Virus record (IMG/VR): IMGVR_UViG_3300048694_000663
Coordinates: 6,222-70,221 of that record
DNA from: a virus
Reading direction: 5' to 3' (one strand)
DNA: 64,000 nucleotides
This document shows positions 3,937 through 62,777 of the stretch, in pieces (position 1 is the stretch's first letter; every line of letters begins with the position of its first letter). Both the position numbers and the translations under genes were made by a program. The notes under the pieces were generated by a model. That model worked only from the letters and a program-made list of their open reading frames with translations. It made no database searches and had not been told where the DNA came from.

Positions 3937-4465
3937 ACTGCAACATCCTTGTCTTAACAGCCATTTCTAATGATTCAACTGAACCATCATTGATAAATTT
4001 ACAGTCCCACCTATCCCAGTTGTCAAGAGCAGTCTCAGAAATATGAGCGTTAATTGGCCCAACCCCAGGTCGTTCTACTTTCCACAACTGAGAATAGTCC
4101 CTATCCTTAATAACTTTGGCTTCGTTTGGAAACCTAACGTCGGTGATAACTACGTTACTTGTATAAGCGACGTCCTTAAGAGCTATATTTACCCAAAAAT
4201 CTTCGCCAAAATTCTTTCGAGCAGCAACTCCCACATCCTGCAACATCTTGCGAATCTCTGGTTTGCTTTTAGCCTCATCCCATCCAAGCGCCTCAACAAC
4301 CTCTTTAATGGTGTTTCCTTCTCGATTGTAGGTGGGGTTTAAATCATAAAGGTAGTTGCGAATAGCGTCGGCAAAAGCAACTCTTCTATAACCAAATTGT
4401 GTACATAAATATTCAGCTATGGTGTCTTTGCCTGAACGTGCGTACCCTGAAATTCCAATAATCAT
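3929..4465 (-). CDS. Deoxynucleoside monophosphate kinase
   Basis: IIGISGYARSGKDT P-loop, AFAD and ITDVRFPNE motifs. Confidence 0.88.
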   Translation of the reverse strand: MIIGISGYARSGKDTIAEYLCTQFGYRRVAFADAIRNYLYDLNPTYNREGNTIKEVVEALGWDEAKSKPEIRKMLQDVGVAARKNFGEDFWVNIALKDVAYTSNVVITDVRFPNEAKVIKDRDYSQLWKVERPGVGPINAHISETALDNWDRWDCKFINDGSVESLEMAVKTRMLQFV

Positions 4466-4473
4466 TTATCTCC

Positions 4474-5403
4474 CTATATTGACATCATGGCTGAAAACTT
4501 TGCGTTCTCAATACCTGTTTGTATCTCTACCTTACTCATGCCCCCAACATCCTTTTGGTCTGTCTCAGCATAGTTAAATACCCAAACGCCTTTGTTAATT
4601 CCTCTAGCCCATTTGAGTAAATCTAAAGTGCAACTTCTGCCAGCATCATCATTATCAAATGCCAACATTAAATGTTCAACAGAAGCGAGTTCTTGTTTTT
4701 GTTCTTTTGTTAGCCCAGCTCCATAAGCAGCTATAGCATTTGGATAGCCGACTGAATAAAGTCGAGCAACATCTAGGGGAGATTCAACAATGATTCTTGT
4801 TTTAGCATGGCCCCAATTATTAAAATTAAAAAGAGTATGCCCCTTTTTAACTCCTTTTGGATAGTTATTAAAATAACGACCTACATAAGACTTCTCTTGC
4901 CACCCGTACAGTTTGTTTGTTCGCGGTTCACGGATAGGAAGAATCCACAGTTCTCGTCGCGGGTCCCAAAGGATTTCACATTCACGACATGACTCAGCAG
5001 TTATGCCTCGAGACTTAAGAGCATTCAATGGGGGATATGTAAACAAAGCCATGGAAGACTCTTGAAGTGTTTCTATAACTTCTGTCTCTGGTTCTTTTAA
5101 TAATGATTCAAATGCTTTGGTTAATCCAGTTGCGCTTTGGCTAATCCAAGCCTCTCCGTTTTTAACATCCTCTACAGATACGCCAGTGACGTATGCAATG
5201 AGAAAAGGAAAGCTTCCTTTAAAATTACATGACCAGCATCTATGTGCACCAGTGCTTGCATTGATTGACCAAGATGGGTTTCTATCTTCATGGCCAGTGC
5301 GTGCTAGGTGTCCTGGACACTTAGCCCATACCTCCTGCCCAACGGTTTTTGTTGGGTGTATCTCTAAAGTCTCTAAGTAATCTTCTAGTTGTGAAGTTTC
5401 CAT
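4474..5403 (-). CDS. DNA primase (zinc finger + TOPRIM)
   Basis: CPGH..HEDRNPS..CWSC zinc finger; IVESPLD and FDNDDAG TOPRIM motifs. Confidence 0.9.
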   Translation of the reverse strand: METSQLEDYLETLEIHPTKTVGQEVWAKCPGHLARTGHEDRNPSWSINASTGAHRCWSCNFKGSFPFLIAYVTGVSVEDVKNGEAWISQSATGLTKAFESLLKEPETEVIETLQESSMALFTYPPLNALKSRGITAESCRECEILWDPRRELWILPIREPRTNKLYGWQEKSYVGRYFNNYPKGVKKGHTLFNFNNWGHAKTRIIVESPLDVARLYSVGYPNAIAAYGAGLTKEQKQELASVEHLMLAFDNDDAGRSCTLDLLKWARGINKGVWVFNYAETDQKDVGGMSKVEIQTGIENAKFSAMMSI

Positions 5404-6632
5404 TAGAAGTCATCCTCTTCAAACTCACGGAACGTAGCTGTATCCCACTCCCATGAAAGCTTTACCTCAGCACCGCCTGAGTTACGGCTAGCCATAATCT
5501 TTAACAAACGAACAGAGTCATCATCATCAATACGCTCAAGGCCCATAACAATGTCAGCATCTTGAGCAAAGGAAGATGCATAACCAATAGAGTCAAGAGT
5601 TGCTCTACCGCCCTTCATCTTATGACCTAGATATTGAGTATTAATAACAATAGGGATGTTTACATTAAGCGCTAGATTCTTTAAAGAACGCGTAATGTTA
5701 GTAAGAGCAGCTGGGGTATTCATTTCTTTTGTCTGCTCATCTTGCATCAAGTACACGCCGTCAATTACCACTAATGAAGGTTGAAGGATTTGAATGTTAT
5801 TAGCGATAGAGGTAACGGTTCTACCCTCTGCTCCTGGAACAAGGTGGAATCCAGCTTTGAAGTTTGCTAATGATTTAAGGCCACTAAGGAATCTAGTTTC
5901 TTCTTCCTGCTCCAAAGTACCTGTCATCAAACGGTGGTGGGAAAGTCGAGAACGCATAGAGTCGTAGCGACGTGCTTGCTCATCGTTTGTCATTTCAAAA
6001 GACTTAAACATTACGGGGTTACCAGACTCATGAACTGATAAAGCCATTTGTAAACAAAGTGTTGACTTACCAGTTTTAGGAAGAGCAGCTACAACAATGA
6101 GCTGTCCGTTTTGGATACCACTGATGCTTTTATCAATCGTTGGAAATCCTGTCCTGTAACCAAGAATTCCATCTGGAGTATTTTTTCGTGTGAGGTACTC
6201 TTCATACCGTTGTTCAGGATTGTTCGTGAGGTCGACAGTAGCTGCACCTTTAAAAGATGAAGCTTCAATCCCGACGAGCCCTCCTTGTAAAGCAAGCAGT
6301 GCTGCTTCATGGTCTTTCTCCTTATCAATAAGTTTGATTGCTTCGCCAAGCATTGCAATGGTTGCTTTTTTACGGCGCTCAGCAACAACAGCATCAAGGA
6401 GATAGTCAATAGGGTCACTAACTTCAACTAAATCAAAAGCTGGAAAGTTATCTTTTACTGCATCAATGCTTGGAGACTCTCCGTAGTTAACAAAGAATTG
6501 GCGCATGAATAAGAAAAGACGTCGGTCTTCATCTATATCAAACCAAGTTTCATCAACAGCTTTTGTAAGAATTGGTGCAAGGTCTTGTAAAGATATTGCT
6601 TTATGTAGCAATCTCGTTTCGTTTAACATCAA
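5403..6632 (-). CDS. DnaB-like replicative helicase
   Basis: GYRTGFPTID, Walker A ALPKTGKS, SFEM, VIDGVYLM and QDADIV. Confidence 0.92.
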   Translation of the reverse strand: MMLNETRLLHKAISLQDLAPILTKAVDETWFDIDEDRRLFLFMRQFFVNYGESPSIDAVKDNFPAFDLVEVSDPIDYLLDAVVAERRKKATIAMLGEAIKLIDKEKDHEAALLALQGGLVGIEASSFKGAATVDLTNNPEQRYEEYLTRKNTPDGILGYRTGFPTIDKSISGIQNGQLIVVAALPKTGKSTLCLQMALSVHESGNPVMFKSFEMTNDEQARRYDSMRSRLSHHRLMTGTLEQEEETRFLSGLKSLANFKAGFHLVPGAEGRTVTSIANNIQILQPSLVVIDGVYLMQDEQTKEMNTPAALTNITRSLKNLALNVNIPIVINTQYLGHKMKGGRATLDSIGYASSFAQDADIVMGLERIDDDDSVRLLKIMASRNSGGAEVKLSWEWDTATFREFEEDDF

Positions 6633-7048
6633 CGACCTCCGAACAAATCTCTAAACGAGTAACCCCAGTGGCCGTACATTAGCAAGCGTTCGGGCAAGTC
6701 CACTACCCCCATTACTTCAGGATGATATGGGAGTGTCGTGACAAGAGAAGCTACATCATCATAAGCAGAGTGATAGCGGAAGGGATTAGTTCCTGCAGCA
6801 TCTAACTTCTCCACAACATTATCTAACTCTTCTTGTGTATGAGAAGTGCTCACCAACTCTAGGGTGACGCCAACTTGAACTGTATAAATATAGAAACGAC
6901 TTAAAGCAACGGAGTCTAGTTGTATATCTGTCTGTGTTTTCTTTAAAACTTTATATTTTGTTACGGTAGTTTTTGTGCTTTTAGAAATTACATCGATGTG
7001 AACTAAAAAACGCTTTGGCATATCATTGCTGATATCACCATTACGCAT
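6629..7048 (-). CDS. Hypothetical protein, possibly a degenerate HAD-like fold
   Basis: 139-aa ORF translationally coupled to its neighbours. Confidence 0.55.
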   Translation of the reverse strand: MRNGDISNDMPKRFLVHIDVISKSTKTTVTKYKVLKKTQTDIQLDSVALSRFYIYTVQVGVTLELVSTSHTQEELDNVVEKLDAAGTNPFRYHSAYDDVASLVTTLPYHPEVMGVVDLPERLLMYGHWGYSFRDLFGGR

Positions 7049-7344
7049 TAGAACACCTCTATTCTCCCGTATTTTATAATGAACTCACGAAACTCTTCGT
7101 CAGAGCCTTGTGCTAGTGCTGCTTCTTCTTGACTTGCTTTTTGTGAAATTTCTAATGGATACGTTCCGTTGTTGGTATCCATTTTGCTTCTAACAAATTT
7201 AAGATGTTTACAATCATATGTGGTCTGCCATCCAGGGCAGGTGCAGTAAAGCCTATCTGCATCATCCACACTGACCTCAAAGATGCCAGGGTTAAATGAA
7301 GACTTCGTACTAAGGAATACTTGGATTAGTCTTTTGGTCACCAC
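7048..7344 (-). CDS. SWIM zinc-finger protein
   Basis: CTCPGW...CKH motif. Confidence 0.75.
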   Translation of the reverse strand: MVTKRLIQVFLSTKSSFNPGIFEVSVDDADRLYCTCPGWQTTYDCKHLKFVRSKMDTNNGTYPLEISQKASQEEAALAQGSDEEFREFIIKYGRIEVF

Positions 7345-8038
7345 CCCTCAATCTTAAATCACCTTCGTTCGTTGCGAGGCGTATTTGATAAAAAGCTTCG
7401 TTTAAAAAGCTGCGTGTCGCAGGGCTATACTGGTCGCCCCAGTCCTTAGGGTTGGTGTTGCTGGTGATGATTGTAGGCAAACCCTCTTCATACCTAGTTC
7501 GTATTACCTCGTGTAGCAAGCTCTTTTGCCATGCAGAACCATAGTTATGTTCATTACCCACATCGTCGATAACAAGTACTCTGATATTAAATGCGTCATC
7601 TTTGCAGTTACCTAAAATGCCATGCCATATTTTGTATTCACGCTCTTCATAATCTCCGCTAATTATTTGACCGCGCAAGGCAATTAACCCTGTGTATGAA
7701 GTAAAGTAAACAGGACGTGACAGGGCTTTACTTTCAGTATCAAAAGACTTTAATGGGTATGTGGTAATCATCTCTTGAAGCAAGGCAGCTCCTACAGTTG
7801 ACTTACCTAATCCAGGAGAACCTGCGAAAAGTAAACCGCGACCACACATCTTTCCACCATAAGCTCGGATGACAAAACCAGTCTTAACTTTATTGACCCA
7901 GCCTTGTAATTCTTTATGGGCATCTTCTGAAAGGTCTACACAATCTTCCAAACGCCAGCCAACAAACTTTGCTGGAATGTTTGCAAGCTTCAACCAAGAC
8001 TTACGACCAAGCGTTAACTTATCAATCGAGTAGGTCAT
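7310..8038 (-). CDS. DnaC/IstB-like AAA+ helicase loader
   Basis: GSPGLGKS Walker A, LVIDDVG Walker B, RY..GLPTIITSN. Confidence 0.88.
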   Translation of the reverse strand: MTYSIDKLTLGRKSWLKLANIPAKFVGWRLEDCVDLSEDAHKELQGWVNKVKTGFVIRAYGGKMCGRGLLFAGSPGLGKSTVGAALLQEMITTYPLKSFDTESKALSRPVYFTSYTGLIALRGQIISGDYEEREYKIWHGILGNCKDDAFNIRVLVIDDVGNEHNYGSAWQKSLLHEVIRTRYEEGLPTIITSNTNPKDWGDQYSPATRSFLNEAFYQIRLATNEGDLRLRGGDQKTNPSIP

Positions 8039-34240: not shown

Positions 34241-37200
34241 TATGCATACCTAGTTCTGTTAGCAAGTACTGTCCATGTTGAGGCTGCTGTTTTAATAATA
34301 GAGTATGTATAAGCATCAATTGCATTAGTATTACCGCTTGTAGGAGCTCCATTAAACCACTTAGGGGTAACAGCAACGCCATCAATTTGAAACGCTGTTT
34401 GATAATAAGCAGTAGCTCCTTGGGTAGTTAGCATGGTCACAGTAATAGATTGCCCAACTGCTAGATAATTATCAAGAGTTTGGGCACCATCAGCCGTGAC
34501 ATTAAACGTAAAGTTTCCTGTTGCATTAGGTACAAACAACGTCACTGCAGTAAACGCTTTGATGTAGTAATTAAGAACACCATTAAGAGCAGATTGATTA
34601 ATGGACGCTGACTCGATTAATTGAGCAACAGTGGTTGTTCCAGTAAAGGTTGTGTTAGAGAAAGTTACGCCTGTGGTTGTTGGGTATGTTCCTTGAGTTC
34701 CTTGAATACCCTGTGCACCAGTGTTACCTTGTAATCCAACAGGACCAAAACCACCTTGAATACCAGTGGTGCCTTGCGCACCGCCTTCGCCAGGGAATCC
34801 TTGAATACCCTGAATTCCAATACCAGTAGTGCCTTGAATACCTTGAGAGCCATAACCAGTTAATCCTTGTGGACCTAGCGCTCCGTCATGTCCTTGAATA
34901 CCTTGAGAGCCAGTTAATCCTTGAAGACCAGTGGTACCTTGCGTACCTATTGCACTTGGCCCTTGGATACCTTGGATACCCTGTACACCAGCAAAACCAG
35001 AAGCTGAAAGCTCTACCCATGCATATGTGTTTCCATCATATACATATGTATAGCCAACACCAGTCTCTGCATCTGTCCATCTATCTCCAAGTAATGGAGA
35101 AGACGGAGGAGTAGAACTAAATGCAATTGCAGCGTTCGGACCTTGTACGCCTTGGTTTCCTTGAACGCCTTGTAGCCCTTGAACACCTTGGTCGCCAGTT
35201 AATCCCTGCGTTCCTTGTGTTCCGTTATTACCAGTTAAACCTTGTAGCCCTTGAGCGCCAATAAAACCTTGTACACCAGATGCGCCTTGAAGACCAATAG
35301 TTCCCTGAGCACCTTGTGCTCCTTGACCAGTTGCTCCCTGAATACCTTGAGCACCAGATGCCCCTGCAAATCCACTAGCACTTACTTCTACCCATGCATA
35401 ATTATTTCCATCATAGATATATGTATATTCAACGCCGCTATTGCTGTCGACCCATCTATCACCAAGCAATGGAGATACTGGAGGAGTTGCATCAAATATT
35501 AAAGCAGCGTTAGGTCCTTGGATACCTTGCACACCTTGTGCGCCACTACCTGTAGCTCCTTGAATGCTTGCACCCTGAATACCCTGAGTACCTTGTACGC
35601 CATCATTTCCAGTAAAGCCTTGAAGTCCTTGAGCTCCTATGAAACCTTGAGCACCTGAGGTTCCTTGAGCACCATTAGCGCCTTGAGTTCCCGCGCCCGC
35701 AGCTCCTTGCAAACCTTGCGTTCCTTGAGCACCTGCAATACCTGCATAACCTGAAGCTGATACTTCAACCCATGCGTTGTTATTACCATCATTAATCCAC
35801 GTATATTCAACACCACTATTTGAATCAACCCAGCGGTCACCCAACAATGGAAATGCTGGAGGAGTGGTTCCAAAACTAATTGCAGCATTAGGACCTTGGA
35901 TACCTTGAGAGCCTTGAACTCCTTGTGCACCGATAAAGCCTTGAACACCTTGTGTTCCTTGAGCACCATCTACACCGATTGTGCCAGTAAATCCTTGGAC
36001 ACCTTGAGTACCAACAAATCCTTGTAAGCCTTGAGCACCAGCAAATCCTTGAGCCGCTGCAGCTCCAGCTATACCTTGCGCACCAGCAGTACCTGTCGCA
36101 CCTTGAATTCCGTAACCAGCAAAACCAGATGCTGAAAGTTCAATCCATGCATAACTGTTGCCATCATAAGTCCAGGTATATTCAGAACCAGAGTTCGCGT
36201 CTACCCAACGGTCACCAAGAGTTGGAGAGACAGGTGGAGTAACTGAGAAAGTAATTCCAACAGTAGGTCCTTGAACACCTTGGTTTCCTTGGATACCTTG
36301 GGTTCCTTGAATACCAGTTCCTGTTAAACCTTGCGAACCAGTAGTTCCTTGAGCGCCATCATTTCCTTGTAAGCCTTGAGCGCCGATAAATCCTTGAAGA
36401 CCTTGAGCTCCTGCAAAACCTTGAGCTGCTGCTGCACCTGCAATACCTTGTGCACCTGGCGCACCAGCAGGTCCTTGAATACCAATACCAGCAAAACCAG
36501 AAGCACTTACTTCAACCCAGGCGTAATTGTTACCGTCATAAATCCACGTGTACTCAGAGCCTGAGTTTGCATCAACCCATCTATCACCAAGTAATGGAGA
36601 TGCTGGAGGAGTAACATCAAAAGTGATTGCAGCATTTGGTCCCTGTAAACCTTGAATACCTTGAGTACCAGCACCAGTCAAACCTTGGGCACCAAGTAAA
36701 CCTTGGATACCTTGAACACCATCAAAACCTTGAGCGCCAATTAATCCCTGGGTTCCAATAAAACCTTGAAGACCTTGCGAACCAGTAAAGCCTTGAGCTG
36801 CAGCAGCTCCCGCTAAACCTTGTGCACCAGCAGCACCAGCAGGACCAGCAGGTCCTTGCACACCACTAAATCCAGATGCAGAAACTTCAACCCATGTTGA
36901 ATTATTTCCATCGTTAATCCATGTGTATTCGATACCGCTGTTGCTATCTACCCAACGGTCGCCAATAGAAGGGGATAGTGGAGGAACTGAATCGAATGTG
37001 ATTCCAGCATTAGTTCCTTGTACACCCTGGATACTTGCACCCTGGATACCTTGCGCACCAGCAACGCCTTGCGCTCCAGCTAAACCTTGAAGACCAGTCG
37101 CGCCTTGTACGCCATCAACACCAATAGTTCCAGCAGTACCTTGTGAACCAATAAAACCTTGTAGACCTTGTGTACCACCAACAATAAGTTGAACCCATTG

Positions 37201-47309: not shown

Positions 47310-48905
47310 CTAACGTTGGAAAAATAAATTGTGGCTTACTTCCACCTCAGGCATAGTGACATCAACAGTCATAGAAACGGCAATTGCCAATGAGTCCGCA
47401 TAGTCATCATGGGCGTGGGCTTCATCAGGAGCATGAGCTAAGAAGTTAGGCCCTTGGAACTTAGTCTCTAGGTCAGTCATCTGTTGGTAAAAGCGCTTCC
47501 ATCTATGAAGGCGTCTTGTCTTAGCATGGGCGGGGTACCCGATAAGACGGCGGTCAATAAGTGCTTTTAGATGCTTCCAACGCTTTGATTGCTCAGGTTG
47601 GCTAGAACCTACCGCAACAACATTTGCTTTAGGTAAAAGAATCTTTAGACGTTGAGCAACAGCGTCACCGACACCGTTTGCATCTACACCAACTGCAAGT
47701 ACATCGTAGTTAGATAAAAAGTTAACAATTTGAAAGTACTGGTCTTCCCAGTCATCTCCTTGAATTTCTAGCCAGTCAAGAACTCGGTGGTCAAAATATC
47801 CAAACTCATCTGGCCTATCCCAACCTACCCACACAACAGTAACAACAGTTGAGTCCATCTTTCGGGCTGGGTCAATTCCAACCACAACAGGGGTGCGGTG
47901 CCAAGCTCGCGTTACTTCCGCAGACTTATCGCCAAGCTCTTCCATAACCGTTGAAGTAACGAACATACCTCGCTCGAGCAACCACTTGCAGCAATAAGAC
48001 ATTTGGAACTCATCTGATTCTTCACCAATGCGAAGTTTCTCGCGCTTAATGAACTTCTCATAGTTTTTATTAACTTTTGCTACTTCAGTCCAGTCCCATT
48101 CAAAATGGTTTTTGCGAGCAGCTCTTCCCGTTTGACGGCGCTTATTTAATTGAATAGCTCTATAGAAATTATTTTTATGAGTTGTAGGTGTTCCTGTTTT
48201 AACCATTGTTCCTGCGTAGTACGCAAGCATAGGAGAAATAGATTTAGAGACAACAAAATCGTCAGCTTCTTGACACTCATCAATAATGACAAGGTGAAAA
48301 GACTTAGATTCAATTTTAGCTCTAGGGTTAGCTGTCATCATTGTTGCTATAGAGCCAGATTTCTTTAGCTTTATATTTGTCGGTCCATCAGACTCTTTAC
48401 CAAGGGAGTCGTCAATTTCATCATCTTGTAAAATTTCTAAAGCACGTGGACTTGATAGACGATTGACTGTACGACCAAATACTGTTTGAGCCTGGTCAGA
48501 TACGGGAGCGAACATTCCTACCTTAATGCCGTCTCTAAACTTACCTAGTAAATCTGGAAACATCTTTGCCAGGCGCGGTAGAAGAATCATAAGCGTAGCT
48601 ATTGTGTTAGCAATTGTTTCTGTTTTACCTGACTGACGAGCAGCAAGGGCGGTAACTTCTTCTCCATCTCCAATGATGACAGACTCCATAATTCGCCTAG
48701 CTAAAGGGCGTTGGTATGGGTGGAGGGCATGAGGCTGTCCCTCATGAGGTACAAGTGCATCCATAAACTGGAAGCACTGCTCGATGAGTTTATTGACGAA
48801 CTCTTTAGAAAGTTCGTCCATCTCCTCTTCAGGCTCTTCGTCAATGAGTTCCTCTTCAGGCAACTCCTCGTCAAAGAGCTCTTCTTCTTCAATAAATTCG
48901 TTCAT
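47310..48905 (-). CDS. terL: Terminase large subunit
   Basis: AARQSGKT Walker A, IIDECQ Walker B, GIDPA and DDYADS nuclease motifs; ATG at 48905 preferred. Confidence 0.94.
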   Translation of the reverse strand: MNEFIEEEELFDEELPEEELIDEEPEEEMDELSKEFVNKLIEQCFQFMDALVPHEGQPHALHPYQRPLARRIMESVIIGDGEEVTALAARQSGKTETIANTIATLMILLPRLAKMFPDLLGKFRDGIKVGMFAPVSDQAQTVFGRTVNRLSSPRALEILQDDEIDDSLGKESDGPTNIKLKKSGSIATMMTANPRAKIESKSFHLVIIDECQEADDFVVSKSISPMLAYYAGTMVKTGTPTTHKNNFYRAIQLNKRRQTGRAARKNHFEWDWTEVAKVNKNYEKFIKREKLRIGEESDEFQMSYCCKWLLERGMFVTSTVMEELGDKSAEVTRAWHRTPVVVGIDPARKMDSTVVTVVWVGWDRPDEFGYFDHRVLDWLEIQGDDWEDQYFQIVNFLSNYDVLAVGVDANGVGDAVAQRLKILLPKANVVAVGSSQPEQSKRWKHLKALIDRRLIGYPAHAKTRRLHRWKRFYQQMTDLETKFQGPNFLAHAPDEAHAHDDYADSLAIAVSMTVDVTMPEVEVSHNLFFQR

Positions 48906-48919
48906 ACCTACCCCATTGT

Positions 48920-48995
48920 AAAAAGCCAAAGAGCTCAGGTCTTTGCAAACCTGAGCCCCTCAGATACCACGACACGGAGAAGAGAAACACGCGGT
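48920..48995 (-). ncRNA. Candidate small RNA with CU-rich loop and terminator
   Basis: TACAAT -10 at 49002-49007; hairpin ACCGCG/CGUGGU with loop containing UUUCUCUUCUCC; 14-bp GCAA-tetraloop stem plus U-tract. Confidence 0.5.
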
Positions 48996-56559: not shown

Positions 56560-57347
56560 TGGTTCTTCTTATTCTTTGCCCACCAAGAGACTCGTTTAGA
56601 TGGAAGCTCATGAACGTGTTGGTGTGGGTGGTCGTGAGCAGCAGCACTGTTGAAGTCAGTGCGTACAGATAAGAAGCTGTCGTCTGAAAGCGCCATAACC
56701 TTTAAGTGAGTAGATGTTGCTCTAGGTTCAAATGTAACATTTGTACCAGGGAGTAATTTATGCAATTGAATAAAGAAGTAAACATCATCAGAAATCCACA
56801 TATCTACCTCAGATGCATAAAAATCTCTAAACCACGGGAGCACATTTGTTTTGTCTTCCCGCGCCTCAAATACCGCTTCAAAAACACTACGATGATAAAG
56901 GCCATAACCAAAGCCAACTGAGTGTAAACCTTCAATAGGTTGATTACTATTAGTAGCTTCTACAGGAAGCCAATTACCGTAAGGCTGTCCTGCTGGCCCA
57001 AACTGTTGGGCAGAAGCCTGCATGCTGGTTCCATTTAAAAACGGCAAGTAATACTTACCTCCCACAATTGGACGCTTTTGGGAATCTGCTGTTTCACAAA
57101 GTTGGTCAAAGTCTTTTAAAGTAATTTTTAGGTCAGTGTCTACTGCAAATAACCATTCGGCTTTTGTTTTTAAAAAAAGTTCAACCATTTTATTTCTATT
57201 GTAGGATAGGTATGGCCCACTACCTACAACTATGTCAGAAATTCTTTCGTTTCTGTTTAAAATTAAATGAGATAGGTGCGCAGCAAACCCTGAGTAAATT
57301 TGCCCGCCATCAATCCAACCTACAGCTATTTTTTCATTAGAGTTCAT
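56556..57347 (-). CDS. GT-A fold glycosyltransferase-like protein
   Basis: NRN..V..FL...AEWLFAVDTD (DxD), VGFG..L.HR.VFE, PWF, SDDVYF and H.K. Confidence 0.78.
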   Translation of the reverse strand: MNSNEKIAVGWIDGGQIYSGFAAHLSHLILNRNERISDIVVGSGPYLSYNRNKMVELFLKTKAEWLFAVDTDLKITLKDFDQLCETADSQKRPIVGGKYYLPFLNGTSMQASAQQFGPAGQPYGNWLPVEATNSNQPIEGLHSVGFGYGLYHRSVFEAVFEAREDKTNVLPWFRDFYASEVDMWISDDVYFFIQLHKLLPGTNVTFEPRATSTHLKVMALSDDSFLSVRTDFNSAAAHDHPHQHVHELPSKRVSWWAKNKKNQ

Positions 57348-58062
57348 CTTTTCCTCCCATTAACTTATACACTTTCTTTACCCAATAGTTATCTCTGTAA
57401 TACCCGCGATTAGCTGCACGAAGTTTCTCACCTACGGTAGGGATTATGTCTACCATTGAGGGGTCATATACCGCCATCCATTCCTCTCTTTTAATCGGAA
57501 TGATTTGAGCAAACGGGGTTCCCTTTGGGATAACTCCTTCAAAGCCCTCTTTAAGAAAGAAAGGAACGTTACCAGAGCCATGAAATTTATCACTATCTAT
57601 AATTCCTGAAGATGTTGTGAAAGGTAAATCAAAACGATTTAAAGGGTGGACAATTAACGAACTAAACCCTTTAGGAGACTTAAATCCCCATTTAGGTGTC
57701 CACACTAAGTGGTTTGGCAAATGACCTGCGGGTCTAGGCATGTGGTATCCAACAGTTTTTGTTCGCTCAGCAATGATTGGGCTTGTTACGTCATCTCCAA
57801 AATCAATGTGAATTTTACCTTCATCTTCAATTTTTATGTGAACATCTGTCCAAGTAGTTAAGCAGTATCCACTTAAAAGAGCGTCTAAAAAAGGCACACA
57901 TGTTTTTAACCCATTATGCTCATGGGTATGGTCTCCATGGTCTTCTGTGTAAGTAATCTCTGACTTTTTATACCACTCGGGGATGTGCTCCCTCATTAAT
58001 GTTGGGTTAGGGACGCGGTCATCCCACGCTTCGTCGCTTGGTATAAATTTGTAAACTTTCAC
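57337..58062 (-). CDS. Conserved phage protein, possible dUTPase-like beta fold
   Basis: IPEWYK, LKTCVPFLDAL..GY, HPLNR.DLPF...SGIIDSD and IPKGTPFAQIIP.KRE.W. Confidence 0.6.
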   Translation of the reverse strand: MKVYKFIPSDEAWDDRVPNPTLMREHIPEWYKKSEITYTEDHGDHTHEHNGLKTCVPFLDALLSGYCLTTWTDVHIKIEDEGKIHIDFGDDVTSPIIAERTKTVGYHMPRPAGHLPNHLVWTPKWGFKSPKGFSSLIVHPLNRFDLPFTTSSGIIDSDKFHGSGNVPFFLKEGFEGVIPKGTPFAQIIPIKREEWMAVYDPSMVDIIPTVGEKLRAANRGYYRDNYWVKKVYKLMGGKDEL

Positions 58063-58594
58063 GTTTGGTAGCCCTTCTATCGGCGAATAGAGTCATATAG
58101 TAACGCACTCCGCTGATAACTGGGTTAATCCCGTGAAGGTATTCTTCGCGTGCCGAATGAATGACAGCACTATTTTTTACGGGCTTATAAGTAATATTTT
58201 TATTGGGATAAAAGATTTCCCCGCCATCGTAGTTATCGTTTAAGTATATAACTATGCCGTATTCGCAACTATTATCCACTTGAGCGTCATAGTGAGCTGG
58301 GCGCTCATCTCCAGGTATAAGTTTTCTTACAACCTTTGTCTCAATGAAATCGTATCTCCACTTTAAAATGGAGTTAACTTCATTTGAAATGAGGTTTTGA
58401 GGCAAGACAAACTCTAAACATCTGCCTTTCCACAAGTCTCCTATTGGATACTTATTCCAGTCTTCCTCTGTAGCGGCATCGGCAATAGAGGTAATCGATG
58501 CCACTATATCTTGTGGAAGAAAGTCGTAAATAACACAACAGTCTTCTGCTAGGAACTCCGCCCTAGGGTCAGTAACGAAGTCCTTGAGTGACAT
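58019..58594 (-). CDS. 2OG-Fe(II) oxygenase, prolyl 4-hydroxylase-like
   Basis: HYD...IYLNDNYDGGE...HGINPVISGVRY: HxD...H triad and 2OG-binding Arg. Confidence 0.9.
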   Translation of the reverse strand: MSLKDFVTDPRAEFLAEDCCVIYDFLPQDIVASITSIADAATEEDWNKYPIGDLWKGRCLEFVLPQNLISNEVNSILKWRYDFIETKVVRKLIPGDERPAHYDAQVDNSCEYGIVIYLNDNYDGGEIFYPNKNITYKPVKNSAVIHSAREEYLHGINPVISGVRYYMTLFADRRATKRESLQIYTKRRSVG

Positions 58595-58875
58595 TATGCT
58601 GGCTTAGAAAACTCACCTGTTGAGTCGTTGTAGGTCCACCCTGAGTCAGGACCGTTGTCAAGAGGCGCGTTGCATTGAACAACCAATGGATTGCTCATGA
58701 GAATCGCAGCCATTCTCTCCTCAACGTGAAATACTGTTTGAACAACACCATCGATAACGTACGCAATGTGGTACGGAAGGGCTGATTGCTGTTCAGCAAT
58801 TGATGGGGCTTCCTTCTTTGCCTTAAGTTCCTCAGCATCAATTGTGCCAAGTGAGCGTGGGGGTGTAAGTGACAT
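58594..58875 (-). CDS. Small hypothetical protein, possible tip-protein partner/chaperone
   Basis: IAYVIDGVV...AAILMSNP..V...GWTY...GEF; GAGGAG SD. Confidence 0.65.
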   Translation of the reverse strand: MSLTPPRSLGTIDAEELKAKKEAPSIAEQQSALPYHIAYVIDGVVQTVFHVEERMAAILMSNPLVVQCNAPLDNGPDSGWTYNDSTGEFSKPA

Positions 58876-58899: not shown

Positions 58900-60213
58900 T
58901 TATTGTACAGTGTTAGCTGAGAAATTATCTACGGTAGTTCCTTGGTAGTACCCGCCAGGAGCCAAAATAATGCCGTGGACGGTGGACTTTACTGGGCTTG
59001 CATCTGTATATGTGATGTCAGAACCAATTTGGCTTGTTTGACCCGCGCCAGAGTAGGCTCTTGCAACAACCTGGTTTCCGTTGAAGAATACCTGTATTGA
59101 AGCAGGTAATTGGGCAATGACCTGGTCAACAACAGTAGTAACAACGTTAGCGGCAGACTTAATAATTCTTAAGCTAGTTGTTCCTGCGCTTGTGGCGCTT
59201 GATTGAGTATAGGACGCGCAAGCAGAGGCGTAGTTTGGCCCTACTGTATTGCTACAGCTAGAGCCATAGTTAGGACCAAGAACTGTTCCCGAACAACTAT
59301 AACTTGTTCCTTGCGCATAGCTGCCTCCGCAAGAATAGAACGGACCTGTTTGACTATAAGTGCCTCCGCAATAATAACTCGGTCCGCTTGACGCGTAAGT
59401 AGTGCAGGTATAGTTAGGTCCAGAAGAGGTCCAAGCAGAGCAGCTCCAAGTTGGTGCAGACGAATACCAGCTTGTACATGAGTAATAAGGACCTACTGCA
59501 AAATATCCGCCCGTACATTTTGCATACCAATATCCTCTAAAACCGTCATAAGCGGTAGACCATCCAGCACAGCCAGAGCCATAAGTTGGACCTACTGAGG
59601 TACCACAAATGGATGTGTAAGTAGGTCCAGAAGATGAAGTACAAGAAATACTCCACGTAGGAGCGCTTTGAACTGAGCAATAGGGGGAGTAGTTGGGACC
59701 TACAGGGTTAACGCAACTAGAGCCATAGCTTGCGCCACTTGGGTTGGTGCAATATTGGTAATAGCTAGTGTTAATACTTCCACTACAAGAATAAAAAGGT
59801 CCTGTTTGACTGTAGGTGCCCCCACAGTAGTAGGTAGGCCCAGTCTGTGAGTATGTCGCACAAGTTTGAGAATAAGATGTATTTGTATTTGTTTGCCCAA
59901 ATACTCCATACCAATTTTGAATATCAGTTACCCAAAAAGCTAGACCCGCACCACCCAAAGTATCAACGTCAGCTTTTAGGTACGGAGTCATAAGACCCGC
60001 TTGAACAGAGGCCAAAGGATAAGAGGCGGGACTGCTGCTATTTGCTTTGTTATTATTAATAAACCAAGTACCGCGTAAGTTAGTCCACGGTTGACCAGTA
60101 TCGGCAGAACCTAGACTACTAGCTGTGTTAGCGCGGTTAAATAAGTCTTTTACGGCGCCAAGAATCCACTTGCGCCATTGACCGCCGAGAGATTGACCAG
60201 AAAATAGAGGCAT
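58900..60213 (-). CDS. Virion tip-like beta-sandwich protein with inserted 18-Cys repeat hairpin
   Basis: DLFNRAN...LG.ADTGQPW....GTW.I N-terminal domain; all 18 Cys lie in about 12-aa repeats within 59218-59862. Confidence 0.75.
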   Translation of the reverse strand: MPLFSGQSLGGQWRKWILGAVKDLFNRANTASSLGSADTGQPWTNLRGTWFINNNKANSSSPASYPLASVQAGLMTPYLKADVDTLGGAGLAFWVTDIQNWYGVFGQTNTNTSYSQTCATYSQTGPTYYCGGTYSQTGPFYSCSGSINTSYYQYCTNPSGASYGSSCVNPVGPNYSPYCSVQSAPTWSISCTSSSGPTYTSICGTSVGPTYGSGCAGWSTAYDGFRGYWYAKCTGGYFAVGPYYSCTSWYSSAPTWSCSAWTSSGPNYTCTTYASSGPSYYCGGTYSQTGPFYSCGGSYAQGTSYSCSGTVLGPNYGSSCSNTVGPNYASACASYTQSSATSAGTTSLRIIKSAANVVTTVVDQVIAQLPASIQVFFNGNQVVARAYSGAGQTSQIGSDITYTDASPVKSTVHGIILAPGGYYQGTTVDNFSANTVQ

Positions 60214-60668
60214 TATGCAAACTTACTCGCTCCCGATGCCAGGACTGTGAAAGTGTTTGTCGCAGTCTTAATCACCGTGAGAGAGTAAGCGTCGATACCA
60301 CTGGCATTACCAGAGGCTGGTACAACCGCATTTAACCATTTAGGCGTAACGGTTGTTCCATCAATAGATATCGAGCTTGGATAGTAAGGCGTAGCTCCCT
60401 GAGTGACTAAAATTACTAAACTAATTGATTGACCATTTGCAATAAGGGAATTAAAAGTGGAGGCTGAGTTACCTCTTAAGTTAAGCACAAAGTTTGCGGT
60501 AGCAGCAGTAGTGAAGTACCAAAAGGTTGATGTTGTTACATCAATATTGAGCGTGCCTGTAGGAGTTGTTGCAGAAATCTGCATGTTCTCAATAGGACCA
60601 GCAACAGGCAAGTTAGAAAGGGTTGTCTGCTCCTGATTTACGATAGGTCCGTAAGTCTGATATTTCAT
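60213..60668 (-). CDS. Fibre adaptor domain protein, paralog of the C-terminus of 34240..37413
   Basis: GQSI..L.TQGAT.YY...IDG..VTPKW...P.SGN...IDAY...IKTA...TVLA is shared by both. Confidence 0.8.
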   Translation of the reverse strand: MKYQTYGPIVNQEQTTLSNLPVAGPIENMQISATTPTGTLNIDVTTSTFWYFTTAATANFVLNLRGNSASTFNSLIANGQSISLVILVTQGATPYYPSSISIDGTTVTPKWLNAVVPASGNASGIDAYSLTVIKTATNTFTVLASGASKFA

Positions 60669-61006
60669 TATACGTACTCAACACCAGACGCCGTCATTGT
60701 GATAGTTGTACCTGCTGAAGCTGAAGCTTGCAATTTATCGCTGTTATTTAACACCTGAGATAGCGGGATAGTTATAAAAGTATTTCCAGCCAAAGTGATT
60801 CCTGGAACAATAACTGTGCTATTTCCCGCTGAACCACCAGAAGGCACTAAAAACACAGATGCAGTAGCGGCGTTGGCAGTAGGGTTTGCAAGGACAATCT
60901 CTTTAATTACCGCTGTTACTCCAGTTGATGGGGAGTATAAAGTTGCTGAAGATGAAGTCGTTAGTTGGAGTGGGTCTACCAAACGCTTAGGAGTTACCGT
61001 TGCCAC
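60668..61006 (-). CDS. Small beta-sandwich virion protein
   Basis: TPKRL...TLY....TAVIKEIVLAN...QVL...DKLQA.AS....ITMTASGVE. Confidence 0.7.
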   Translation of the reverse strand: MATVTPKRLVDPLQLTTSSSATLYSPSTGVTAVIKEIVLANPTANAATASVFLVPSGGSAGNSTVIVPGITLAGNTFITIPLSQVLNNSDKLQASASAGTTITMTASGVEYV

Positions 61007-62030: not shown

Positions 62031-62777
62031 CTACAAGCGGTCCATTAAAGCGTCCCAGGTCTTAGGACCTACAACGCCATTGGAATCCAAGCCAACGTGG
62101 TTGTCTTGAAAAGCAATAACAGCCTTCTTGGTAGCTGGGCCGTAATCGCCGTCTTCTACGAGGTCAAGGGCATTTTGAATCAGCTTAACTGCATCACCTT
62201 TAGCTCCTGGCTTAATTGCTCCAGGGAAAGCTGGTTTTGATGCAGGAACTGGCTCAGCATTGACTTCATTGCCTTTGTAGTTAGGACGACCAAATCCTTC
62301 AATAAAGATTGGTAGCCCTTTCTTGTTTTTCTTATAAGCACGGACTTTAACCACAGCCTCACCGCCATTTGCCTGTGAACCAGACTTCTTTTTGGTGCCT
62401 GCAGTATTGCCTTCAATTGTGGTCACTGTTCCATCGCCATTGTCTTTAACAACAATTCCAACGTGCTCGATTGGAGCGCCGCCTTCCATGAAATCAAAAT
62501 AAACGATATCGCCAGGAGCTGGGGTTGCTGCGTGTGCGTCTGTCCAAGTACCAAGCTTTTTAAAACCTGCTGCACCGTTCATTGTAGAAACAGTGTTTGG
62601 AATTTTAACTCCAGCTTGGTGAGCTACCCACATGCAGAAGCTGCCACACCACGGCAAGAAATTTGCCTTGGTAAATGCCCCATACTTAGTTTCGTTATCT
62701 TTTGGTCCTTCTACGTAGCCTTCTTCAGCGAGGGCTACTTCGACCATTCTTGCTGCTGTACCTTGTTCTGCTGCCAT
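62031..62777 (-). CDS. Endolysin: CHAP domain plus peptidoglycan-binding domain
   Basis: PWCGSF (Cys), PGDIVYF, HVGIV (His), TIEGNT; C-terminal G.KG.AVK.IQ..L...DG.YGPAT..AV.AFQ...GVVGPKTW. Confidence 0.92.
   Translation of the reverse strand: MAAEQGTAARMVEVALAEEGYVEGPKDNETKYGAFTKANFLPWCGSFCMWVAHQAGVKIPNTVSTMNGAAGFKKLGTWTDAHAATPAPGDIVYFDFMEGGAPIEHVGIVVKDNGDGTVTTIEGNTAGTKKKSGSQANGGEAVVKVRAYKKNKKGLPIFIEGFGRPNYKGNEVNAEPVPASKPAFPGAIKPGAKGDAVKLIQNALDLVEDGDYGPATKKAVIAFQDNHVGLDSNGVVGPKTWDALMDRL

Follow-up and report, generated by a model that had tools for sequence, protein, structure and literature searches.

What kind of structure is formed by a phage protein that confines all of its eighteen cysteines to one internal segment and sets them out at nearly constant spacing on either side of a single loop? 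The question is raised by P0001, a protein of 437 residues encoded on the minus strand of the viral contig IMGVR_UViG_3300048694_000663 (IMG/VR; 70,221 bp, estimated completeness 73%), 64 kb of which, hereafter the window, were analysed. A first-pass annotation made from the letters of this DNA had proposed a long disulfide-stapled β-hairpin stalk inserted in a virion protein. The comparisons reported here lead to an explanation of the same general type, to which we give, as a whole, a probability of about 0.62: P0001 would be a fibre-associated protein with a β-sandwich scaffold and an antiparallel, length-adjustable stalk closed by nested disulfides.

All 18 cysteines of P0001 lie between residues 118 and 332, in an insert of 215 residues whose boundaries (window positions 59218-59862) are exactly those of the first-pass annotation; the flanks, which we term the scaffold, are free of cysteine. 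Its division of the insert into two arms of nine cysteines joined by a 17-residue, cysteine-free loop is likewise reproduced and confirmed as an observation: the cysteines are at residues 118, 130, 143, 155, 167, 179, 191, 203 and 215 in arm 1 and at 233, 246, 258, 270, 282, 295, 307, 320 and 332 in arm 2. Hence, the Cys-to-Cys spacings read 12,13,12,12,12,12,12,12 in arm 1, 18 across the loop and 13,12,12,12,13,12,13,12 in arm 2. With 4.1% cysteine, P0001 ranks first among the 58 open reading frames (ORFs) of the window, the mean of which is 0.54% (101/18876 residues). The insert is rich in S, Y, G and T; none of the 198 residues of the arms is charged, as against three of the 17 in the tip loop. 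The segments between successive cysteines, here called half-rungs, are of two types: A, x-x-Y-x-x-x-G-P-x-Y-x-C, and B, x-x-x-x-G-P-x-Y-x-x-x-C. In the order in which the first-pass annotation had read them (Table 1), an antiparallel fold pairs an A with a B at every level (8/8 mirror pairs complementary). Two finer points of that reading need amendment. Segments 3 and 15 do carry TSY in place of P-x-Y, but segment 4 (TNPSGASYGSSC) also lacks the proline of that motif; and the longer segments 2 and 16 are indeed mirror partners, but four segments are longer by one residue (2, 10, 14 and 16), and only 2 and 16 among them face each other. The A/B complementarity of P0001 is by itself weak evidence, because arm 2 can be arranged in C(8,2) = 28 ways, one of which gives 8/8. 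From this one protein the mirror pattern is suggestive, not conclusive, and it goes beyond chance only when the relatives are added.

Relatives were collected with a word-indexed protein search (36 proteins) and an exhaustive HMMER search (535 cluster representatives at E<=1e-3, of which the best 150 were listed individually), and a scan of viral contigs for related loci gave 80 loci (L-numbered below). We define as ladder-type those relatives that have at least six cysteines and every Cys-Cys spacing between 7 and 23; symmetry was not used in this selection, which comprises 43 distinct proteins with 3 to 18 cysteines per arm. The cysteine count is even in all 43, as one of the tests proposed in the first-pass annotation requires. 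A unique largest gap of at least 17 residues is present in 33, and in 31 of these it is exactly central. When the rungs of the two arms are paired in mirror order, the summed absolute difference in rung length is 79, as against 177 in direct order and a mean of 160 (minimum 127) with arm 2 shuffled: none of 5000 shuffles reached 79, and the correlation over 186 rung pairs in 32 proteins is r = 0.88. The half-rung types behave in the same way, with 110 complementary and 7 same-type pairs in mirror order (2000 shuffles gave a mean of 65.8 complementary pairs and a maximum of 81) and 53 complementary and 46 same-type pairs in direct order. The point at which an arm switches from A to B varies (AABBBBBB in P0001, AAAAAABB in P0007 and ABBBBBBA in P0004), and the opposite arm always compensates.

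Individual architectures convey the precision of this symmetry. The spacings of P0018 form an exact 21-element palindrome of four lengths (7,12,7,9,9,11,9,9,9,11, then 18, then 11,9,9,9,11,9,9,7,12,7), and those of P0012 and P0013 include the run 15,10, then 18, then 10,15. In L076, a 691-residue ORF (5238-7313 of its contig) with 36 cysteines, 18 per arm, spacings range over 9-21, and at each of the 17 levels the two arms agree to within one residue. Another of the proposed tests, that insertions and deletions be symmetric across the arms, has the same outcome in the four close relatives compared. P0002, whose scaffold is 88-95% identical to that of P0001, differs by four whole-rung events that make up two mirrored pairs: a deletion of 13 residues at position 120 goes with one of 12 at 320, and an insertion of 12 residues at 199 with one of 13 at 264. 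The differences from P0004 and P0005 are likewise mirrored, and those from P0003 are more fragmented, still falling on both arms. Such whole-rung events, together with the range of 3 to 18 rungs per arm, favour the earlier suggestion that length is set by paired gain or loss of repeats.

These results bear directly on a quite different fold, a β-solenoid of the Tenebrio antifreeze type, in which the 12-residue units would be coils and the disulfides sequential (C1-C2, C3-C4 and so on). The regular period of 12-13 residues with one cysteine per unit has the look of such a fold, which also needs an even number of cysteines. Its symmetry, however, would be translational and not mirror: rung lengths paired in direct order agree less well than after shuffling, the direct pairing of A and B is mixed, the indels are mirrored across the arms, and a constant central 18-residue element with equal arms would have no role. 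The units of P0001, moreover, have one cysteine each, not two. We regard this fold as very improbable.

An antiparallel ladder, in which half-rung i of arm 1 stands opposite half-rung n-i of arm 2, is thus very probably the correct reading of these sequences: the two antiparallel segments in register that define a cystine ladder are recognizable in the covariation of length and of A/B type, in the mirrored indels and in the equal arms (31/33). Some observations do not fit it. In P0041 (460 residues) the arms are unequal, with 9 and 11 cysteines around an 18-residue gap, and in L043 (a 280-residue ORF) the long gap is off-centre; these may be intermediates of a one-arm gain of rungs or may have a different tip. 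There are the seven same-type pairs in mirror order, and the shuffle tests overstate independence because the relatives are kin. The mirror pattern is nonetheless present in many distinct architectures.

As to how the arms came to match, no recent tandem repeat array was found at the DNA level in the ladder region, which speaks against an origin of the ladder by fresh tandem duplication. A 65-nucleotide direct repeat of 74% identity (Table 1) links the arms, encoding the identical A-type half-rung GGTYSQTGPFYSC in segment 2 of arm 1 and segment 14 of arm 2. Since these two segments are not mirror partners, half-rungs appear to have been copied between the arms.

The comparison of relatives speaks to the physical register of the arms, not to their chemistry. 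Nested disulfides across the arms would be the simplest reason for the even cysteine count, the equal arms and the facing of cysteine by cysteine, and we consider them likely. A connectivity of this kind is described for the cyclic cystine ladder of the θ-defensins, where two antiparallel strands are joined by parallel nested cross-strand disulfides (PMC6327110). P0001 would share with these and with stapled β-hairpin antimicrobial peptides its proposed antiparallel arms and nested disulfides. The θ-defensins, however, are cyclic peptides of 18 residues with three rungs and cysteines about two residues apart, and P0001 is no short peptide of that type: it has nine cysteine levels 12-13 residues apart in an insert of a 437-residue protein, and its rungs consist of two complementary G-P-x-aromatic half-units and number 3 to 18 among relatives.

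In the AlphaFold2 (AF2) model of P0001, built from 33 sequences, two long strands (E101-130 and E323-354) leave and re-enter the sandwich, with a predicted local distance difference test score (pLDDT) of about 80 at C118 and C332 and above 90 in the scaffold, and further strands are drawn around the tip. P0038, with four cysteines per arm (26 sequences), has the same topology and a confident scaffold. The regular β-hairpin or ribbon form of the arms is unproven, its strands being drawn by AF2 at low confidence. Several points weigh against a uniformly stapled ribbon. The pLDDT falls to 27-50 in the mid-stalk of P0001 (residues 133-191 and 262-318) and to 34-60 across the entire ladder of P0038. 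Odd spacings (7, 9, 11) are common in the relatives and misfit a regular β-ladder with equivalent disulfide sites; 'β-hairpin' may therefore be too simple a term. In P0004 rungs of 11 residues face rungs of 13 and the sum stays 24, so that the ladder may depend less on a regular β register than on rings of constant size. Phage proteins, moreover, fold in a reducing cytoplasm, and neither thioredoxin nor glutaredoxin was found in the 70-kb record, estimated to be 73% complete; a search of the same record for an Erv1/Alr (Erv-type) oxidase gave no match, as did its control in every control genome, which makes it uninformative. A passage on Pam3 indicates that virions of freshwater phages can carry structural disulfides (PMC9942802). 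The A/B complementarity may itself have a structural reason: with A read against reversed B, glycine would stand opposite glycine, the prolines would be diagonally offset and the aromatic residues would cluster.

The scaffold from which the ladder departs belongs to a recognizable fold, which sequence searches do not disclose. P0001 has no match in Pfam (E<=0.1), PHROGs or NCBIfam, and a PDB profile search with the ladder-family alignment gave nothing below E 0.14. The only family leads are a match of the relative P0109 to PF06439 and an ESM Atlas cluster, SO2946-like_C, at score 0.89; ESM Atlas matches to P0001 at scores of at least 0.9 are all unnamed viral clusters. Foldseek with the P0001 model found no PDB entry at E<=0.001, the best being SPRY and legume lectins at E 0.06-0.3, and VIA-align was needed to identify the scaffold. 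Against 48,161 PDB representatives it matched the flanks to ConA-like sandwiches, which make up most of the 129 chains with Z of at least 8: among them are CBM66, a carbohydrate-binding module (CBM) (4b1m_A; Z 17.4, root-mean-square deviation 2.3 over 149), the receptor-binding domain of TM4 gp23 (9n6a_A; Z 15.4), Douge BppU (8zdo_a; Z 14.0) and CBM2 of the phage J-1 Dit (5ly8_A; Z 12.9). These four align over 149-177 residues at 8-13% sequence identity. The modelled scaffold is thus superposable on solved members of the ConA-like lectin/glucanase class, and residues 1-117 and 333-437 are predicted to form together one ConA/CBM66-like β-sandwich. The Douge BppU-CBM binds mycobacterial glycans experimentally (PMC13033339). 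The likeness of P0001 to CBM66 and the actinophage glycan-binding modules is one of scaffold fold (Z 12.9-17.4); it differs from them in its low sequence identity and in the lack of a Pfam, NCBIfam or PDB profile match. An insert comparable to the ladder is unmentioned in the titles and passages on these modules, a separation drawn from descriptions and not from structures.

The tip loop runs counter to one expectation of the first-pass annotation, that it would be hypervariable. Among close relatives the tip is 53-88% identical, the arms 44-78% and the scaffold 81-95%, so the proposal is rejected: by these comparisons conservation within the insert is highest at the tip. As in P0001, the central Cys-to-Cys gap is 18 in 23 of the 43 ladder-type relatives; a YDGFRG-like motif, [YL]DG[FLP]RG, recurs in 15 of the 43, and charged residues make up 10.4% of the tips and 1.2% of the arms across them. 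A YD/Rhs-repeat reading of this motif was tried and dropped, as its residue order differs from that of the YD consensus and Pfam gave no match. A conserved tip fits a structural turn that nucleates folding as well as it fits a binding site for a conserved ligand, which counts against our explanation, and the assignment of the tip as a putative binding site is tentative.

The ladder is set in a much wider family. Among 172 relatives shorter than 700 residues, most keep the scaffold and carry very different Cys-rich inserts at the same site, and the cysteine count is even in 156. P0043, P0100, P0154 and P0059 have mirror-symmetric spacing with short gaps of 4-7 residues. The loci L055, L056 and L058 (a 575-residue ORF, 6001-7728) have 34 cysteines: each arm has runs of 12-13-residue spacing, the tip has a Cys-dense cluster (spacings 29,3,3,6,9), and there is a basal clasp. 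From these sequences, the ladder of P0001 is apparently one form of a broader, hyperdiverse display site. The stronger proposal, which we hold at a little below even odds, is that the extendable cystine-ladder stalk is a new modular architecture within a larger phage display system of even-numbered Cys-rich inserts on a CBM-like scaffold; its inserts would be ladders (spacings 4 to 21), ladders with Cys-dense clusters on top and knot-like patterns.

This diversity also bears on a more modest role, in which the CBM-like sandwich or another protein would bind the host and the ladder would be a passive spacer or strut, setting a distance (through a capsule or surface layer) or tying the tip to a part of the virion. 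Much that has been described would suit a spacer: the scaffold fold is that of glycan-binding domains, the arms diverge fastest and have a low-complexity S/T/G/Y composition, and within subfamilies the tip is constant in length and conserved while the rungs range from 3 to 18 per arm. Very diverse Cys-rich inserts at the same scaffold site are, on the other hand, more typical of a diversifying surface than of a ruler, and no partner of the tip is known. We consider such a spacer unlikely, with about the same weight as the trimeric arrangement discussed below.

A comparison with the ultralong third complementarity-determining region of bovine antibody heavy chains (CDR-H3) had been offered by the first-pass annotation. 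The stalk of these loops is not known to be stapled by disulfides, and a knob rich in disulfides forms its end. The analogy is a loose fit: shared are a long, two-stranded, diversity-bearing excursion from a β-sandwich and an even number of cysteines, whereas the stalk of P0001 would be stapled and its tip is conserved and has no cysteine knob; it is L055, L056 and L058 that have a Cys-dense tip cluster. If the display-system reading is true, the family would do for phages, in recognizing hosts in oxic waters, what ultralong CDR3s do for antibodies, or would be the phage equivalent of knottin libraries.

The genomic setting of P0001 places it beside a fibre domain. The window belongs to a contractile-tailed phage, with genes identified for terminase, portal, major capsid protein (which shares 70-72% identity with its counterpart in the Streptomyces phage BRock group), sheath, baseplate wedge and endolysin; the minus strand carries nearly all of its long ORFs and every gene named here. 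P0001 is the last of three overlapping genes (Table 1), the middle one encoding a 151-residue, stand-alone version of a fibre C-terminal domain. Over 124 residues this protein is 45% identical to the C-terminal end of a collagen-like tail fibre of 1057 residues. In 13 of the 80 related loci (76 of which have more than 600 nucleotides upstream) the scaffold gene is directly preceded, on its own strand, by a sequence for a fibre-end-like domain; in 9 of the 13 this domain is the C-terminus of a protein of 276-896 residues, with collagen repeats in L011 and Mtd_N in L077. PDB profile searches with the fibre-end domain and with the 241-residue neighbour downstream gave nothing meaningful, and a scan for promoters and terminators gave counts at shuffle level.

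Table 1. Coordinates of P0001, its parts and the neighbouring features within the 64-kb window
Feature	Positions	Strand	Remarks
P0001 gene, 437 residues	58900..60213	-	stop codon 58900-58902
Scaffold, N-terminal half, residues 1-117, Cys-free	59863..60213	-	AF2 pLDDT 91-97 for residues 21-110; part of predicted ConA/CBM66-like sandwich
Ladder arm 1, residues 118-215, Cys 1-9	59569..59862	-	half-rungs A A B B B B B B
Tip loop, residues 216-232, AGWSTAYDGFRGYWYAK, 17 residues	59518..59568	-	sole charged residues of the insert: D, R, K
Ladder arm 2, residues 233-332, Cys 10-18	59218..59517	-	half-rungs A A A A A A B B
Scaffold, C-terminal half, residues 333-437, Cys-free	58903..59217	-	AF2 pLDDT 93-96 for residues 341-430; VIA-align fold match
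65-nucleotide direct repeat, two copies	59321-59385 and 59777-59841		74% identity
Gene of 112 residues, first of three overlapping	60668..61006	-	relatives upstream of the scaffold gene in 9/80 loci
Gene of 151 residues, middle of three, stand-alone fibre C-terminal domain (phrog_5906)	60213..60668	-	TAA stop overlaps the P0001 ATG by 1 nucleotide (TAATG)
Gene of 93 residues, directly downstream of P0001	58594..58875	-	relatives downstream, same strand, in 48/80 loci
Gene of 241 residues, phrog_7084, DUF6065-like (language-model features 0.97-0.98)	57337..58062	-	downstream, same strand, in 35/80 loci
Collagen-like tail fibre (1057 residues), C-terminal domain, residues 929-1051	34261..34629	-	45% identical to the 151-residue protein
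Collagen-like fibre gene, 1057 residues	34240-37413	-	
Collagen-like fibre gene, 1221 residues	37413-41078	-	
Terminase gene	47310-48929	-	
Endolysin gene	62031-62777	-	

Adhesins of the gp38 type of T-even phages are encoded just after the fibre gene, are seated on the fibre tip and are built around a polyglycine-II sandwich. P0001 resembles them in being small, low-complexity and rich in G, S and Y, in having its variable part between conserved parts, and in being encoded directly after a fibre-end domain, as the TAATG overlap and the 13 related loci attest. Glycine-rich motifs of S16 gp38 are mentioned in a passage of PMC9942802. P0001 differs in having no PHROG or Pfam match and in combining a predicted ConA-like sandwich with a Cys ladder in place of the polyglycine-II sandwich; no relationship to gp38 in sequence or fold was found. 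The gene order, a fibre followed by a tip protein, supports a fibre-associated role without proving it, and a predicted role of P0001 in fibre-associated host recognition is, on balance, what we favour. A complex prediction with three copies of the 151-residue protein and P0001 gave scores of 0.16 and 0.29 against a mark of 0.32, without controls, and carries no weight either way as to binding.

That P0001 is in the virion and attached to the fibre is deduced from fold and gene order only, and the gene is outside the main tail module, between the endolysin gene and a sugar-modification cluster; both points speak against our explanation. The location would suit a protein that is no part of the virion, either a lectin that is secreted or released on lysis or an intracellular protein with cysteines that are reduced or metal-bound, as would the failure to find an oxidoreductase in the 70-kb record. 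Yet P0001 is translationally coupled to the gene of the fibre-end domain, its counterpart directly follows a long fibre-type gene in 9 related loci, related domains end proteins of 981 to 1848 residues, and it is hard to see what 18 regularly spaced cysteines in a stalk without charges would do in the cytoplasm. A non-virion protein is, in our estimate, distinctly improbable.

The collagen-like fibre raises the matter of symmetry. The needle at the tip of the T4 long tail fibre (gp37) is a trimer with His-x-His motifs and a column of iron ions bound by histidine. As is proposed for P0001, its chain runs out to the tip and back, and residues that form cross-links recur at regular intervals along the stalk; P0001 has single cysteines and not His-x-His motifs with metal. 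By analogy, the six arms of three P0001 copies might pack as a closed β-prism, with the cysteine layers as inter-chain disulfides or metal-binding sites. The upstream partner domain also ends a collagen-like, and hence trimeric, fibre; a two-stranded ribbon that lacks charges, is rich in aromatic residues and has arms of about 100 residues would hardly be stable by itself; and the mirror covariation is equally expected if each chain goes up and back within a trimer. Set against this, the closest scaffold matches are modules that are not known to need three-fold packing, and six thiolates round one ion would generally be an unusual metal site. Douge BppU is moreover described as forming homodimers (PMC13033339). 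We judge a trimeric needle to be unlikely.

The explanation that we prefer, a single-chain stalk on a fibre-associated sandwich, would operate as follows. The 215-residue excursion would leave and re-enter the ConA/CBM66-like sandwich, with each level closed by a cross-arm disulfide, from C1-C18 to C9-C10. The nested disulfides would create eight macrocycles of 24-26 residues and an 18-residue tip ring, each rung being the sum of an A half and a B half, with glycine opposite glycine, proline diagonally offset and the aromatic residues clustered. Oxidation of the thiols would follow the arrival of the particle in oxic water and give a charge-free, protease-poor stalk of adjustable length, which would shift in evolution as the two halves of a rung are gained or lost in concert. 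This stalk, with a surface of periodic Tyr/Trp/Ser/Thr, would project a conserved aromatic and charged tip (YDGFRGYWY), and either tip or stalk surface could contact glycans of the host surface alongside the sandwich. P0001 would probably ride on the phrog_5906 fibre-end domain encoded just upstream.

Parts of this scheme are already known: the connectivity of a cystine ladder, the out-and-back topology, the glycan-binding fold in phages and structural disulfides in freshwater phages. No counterpart was found, in the families, PDB or literature searched, for a ladder that is long and modular, has complementary half-rungs and gains and loses its rungs in concert, and there is a real chance that it is a new architecture; no description of a phage cysteine-ladder stalk was found in open-access papers and preprints. 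If its nested disulfides are real, it would be the first natural cystine ladder tuned in length rung by rung, and we know of no longer one. Two distant segments of a sequence that change together provide a clean natural case in which whole repeat units covary for structural reasons. The 535 cluster representatives amount, for the study of phages, to a large unannotated family, which probably serves host recognition as a module on collagen-like fibres. An adjustable stalk that is free of charge, stapled by disulfides and provided with a defined tip would be of use to protein engineers as a display scaffold, and the ladder, of which AF2 is unsure, is a hard test case for structure predictors.

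The family is seen almost only in uncultured viral contigs. A tblastn search of 50,697 phage records found none with the full P0001 (E<=1e-5) or with its non-repetitive C-terminal 105 residues (E<=1), records of its own genome possibly being excluded. In 185,579 species genomes there is one relative, on a 12-kb contig of a metagenome bin, and hence no host can be inferred from it. The N-terminal region varies among relatives: P0006-P0013, P0018 and P0042 repeat a motif of the type [VI]K[VI]xGxW, with one to three copies beyond the single one (GGQWRKW) kept by P0001, and P0018 and P0042 have about 60 further residues beyond these copies, with no Pfam match. This extra region may be the part that attaches to the virion. 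The scaffold is also found inside or at the end of very long proteins: P0092 (1848 residues), with scaffold matches in six stretches alongside esterase-type domains; P0109 (1195 residues); and L048 (a 981-residue ORF, 4207-7152), with a weak fn3 match under Pfam's own cut-off.

Downstream of P0001, no known family or PDB relative was found for the 93- and 241-residue neighbours (window 57337-58875). The two genes accompany scaffold genes with Cys-rich inserts of very different kinds, and their products may act in maturation or assembly. The fibre-end domain phrog_5906 occurs twice in this phage, at the C-terminus of the 1057-residue fibre and as the free 151-residue copy. The two giant collagen-like fibre genes are adjacent, and their products match dozens of tail-fibre PHROGs through their repeats; the 1057-residue fibre has no cysteine at all. 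Between 53943 and 58594, genes for a 2-oxoglutarate-Fe(II) (2OG-Fe(II)) oxygenase (PF13640), a glycosyltransferase, a nucleotide-sugar epimerase and a kinase adjoin genes for collagen-like and G-P-x-Y-rich proteins; a search of the 80 loci for the first three found them kept downstream in 8-9. It is conceivable that the collagen-like and G-P-x-Y-rich virion proteins are hydroxylated or glycosylated.

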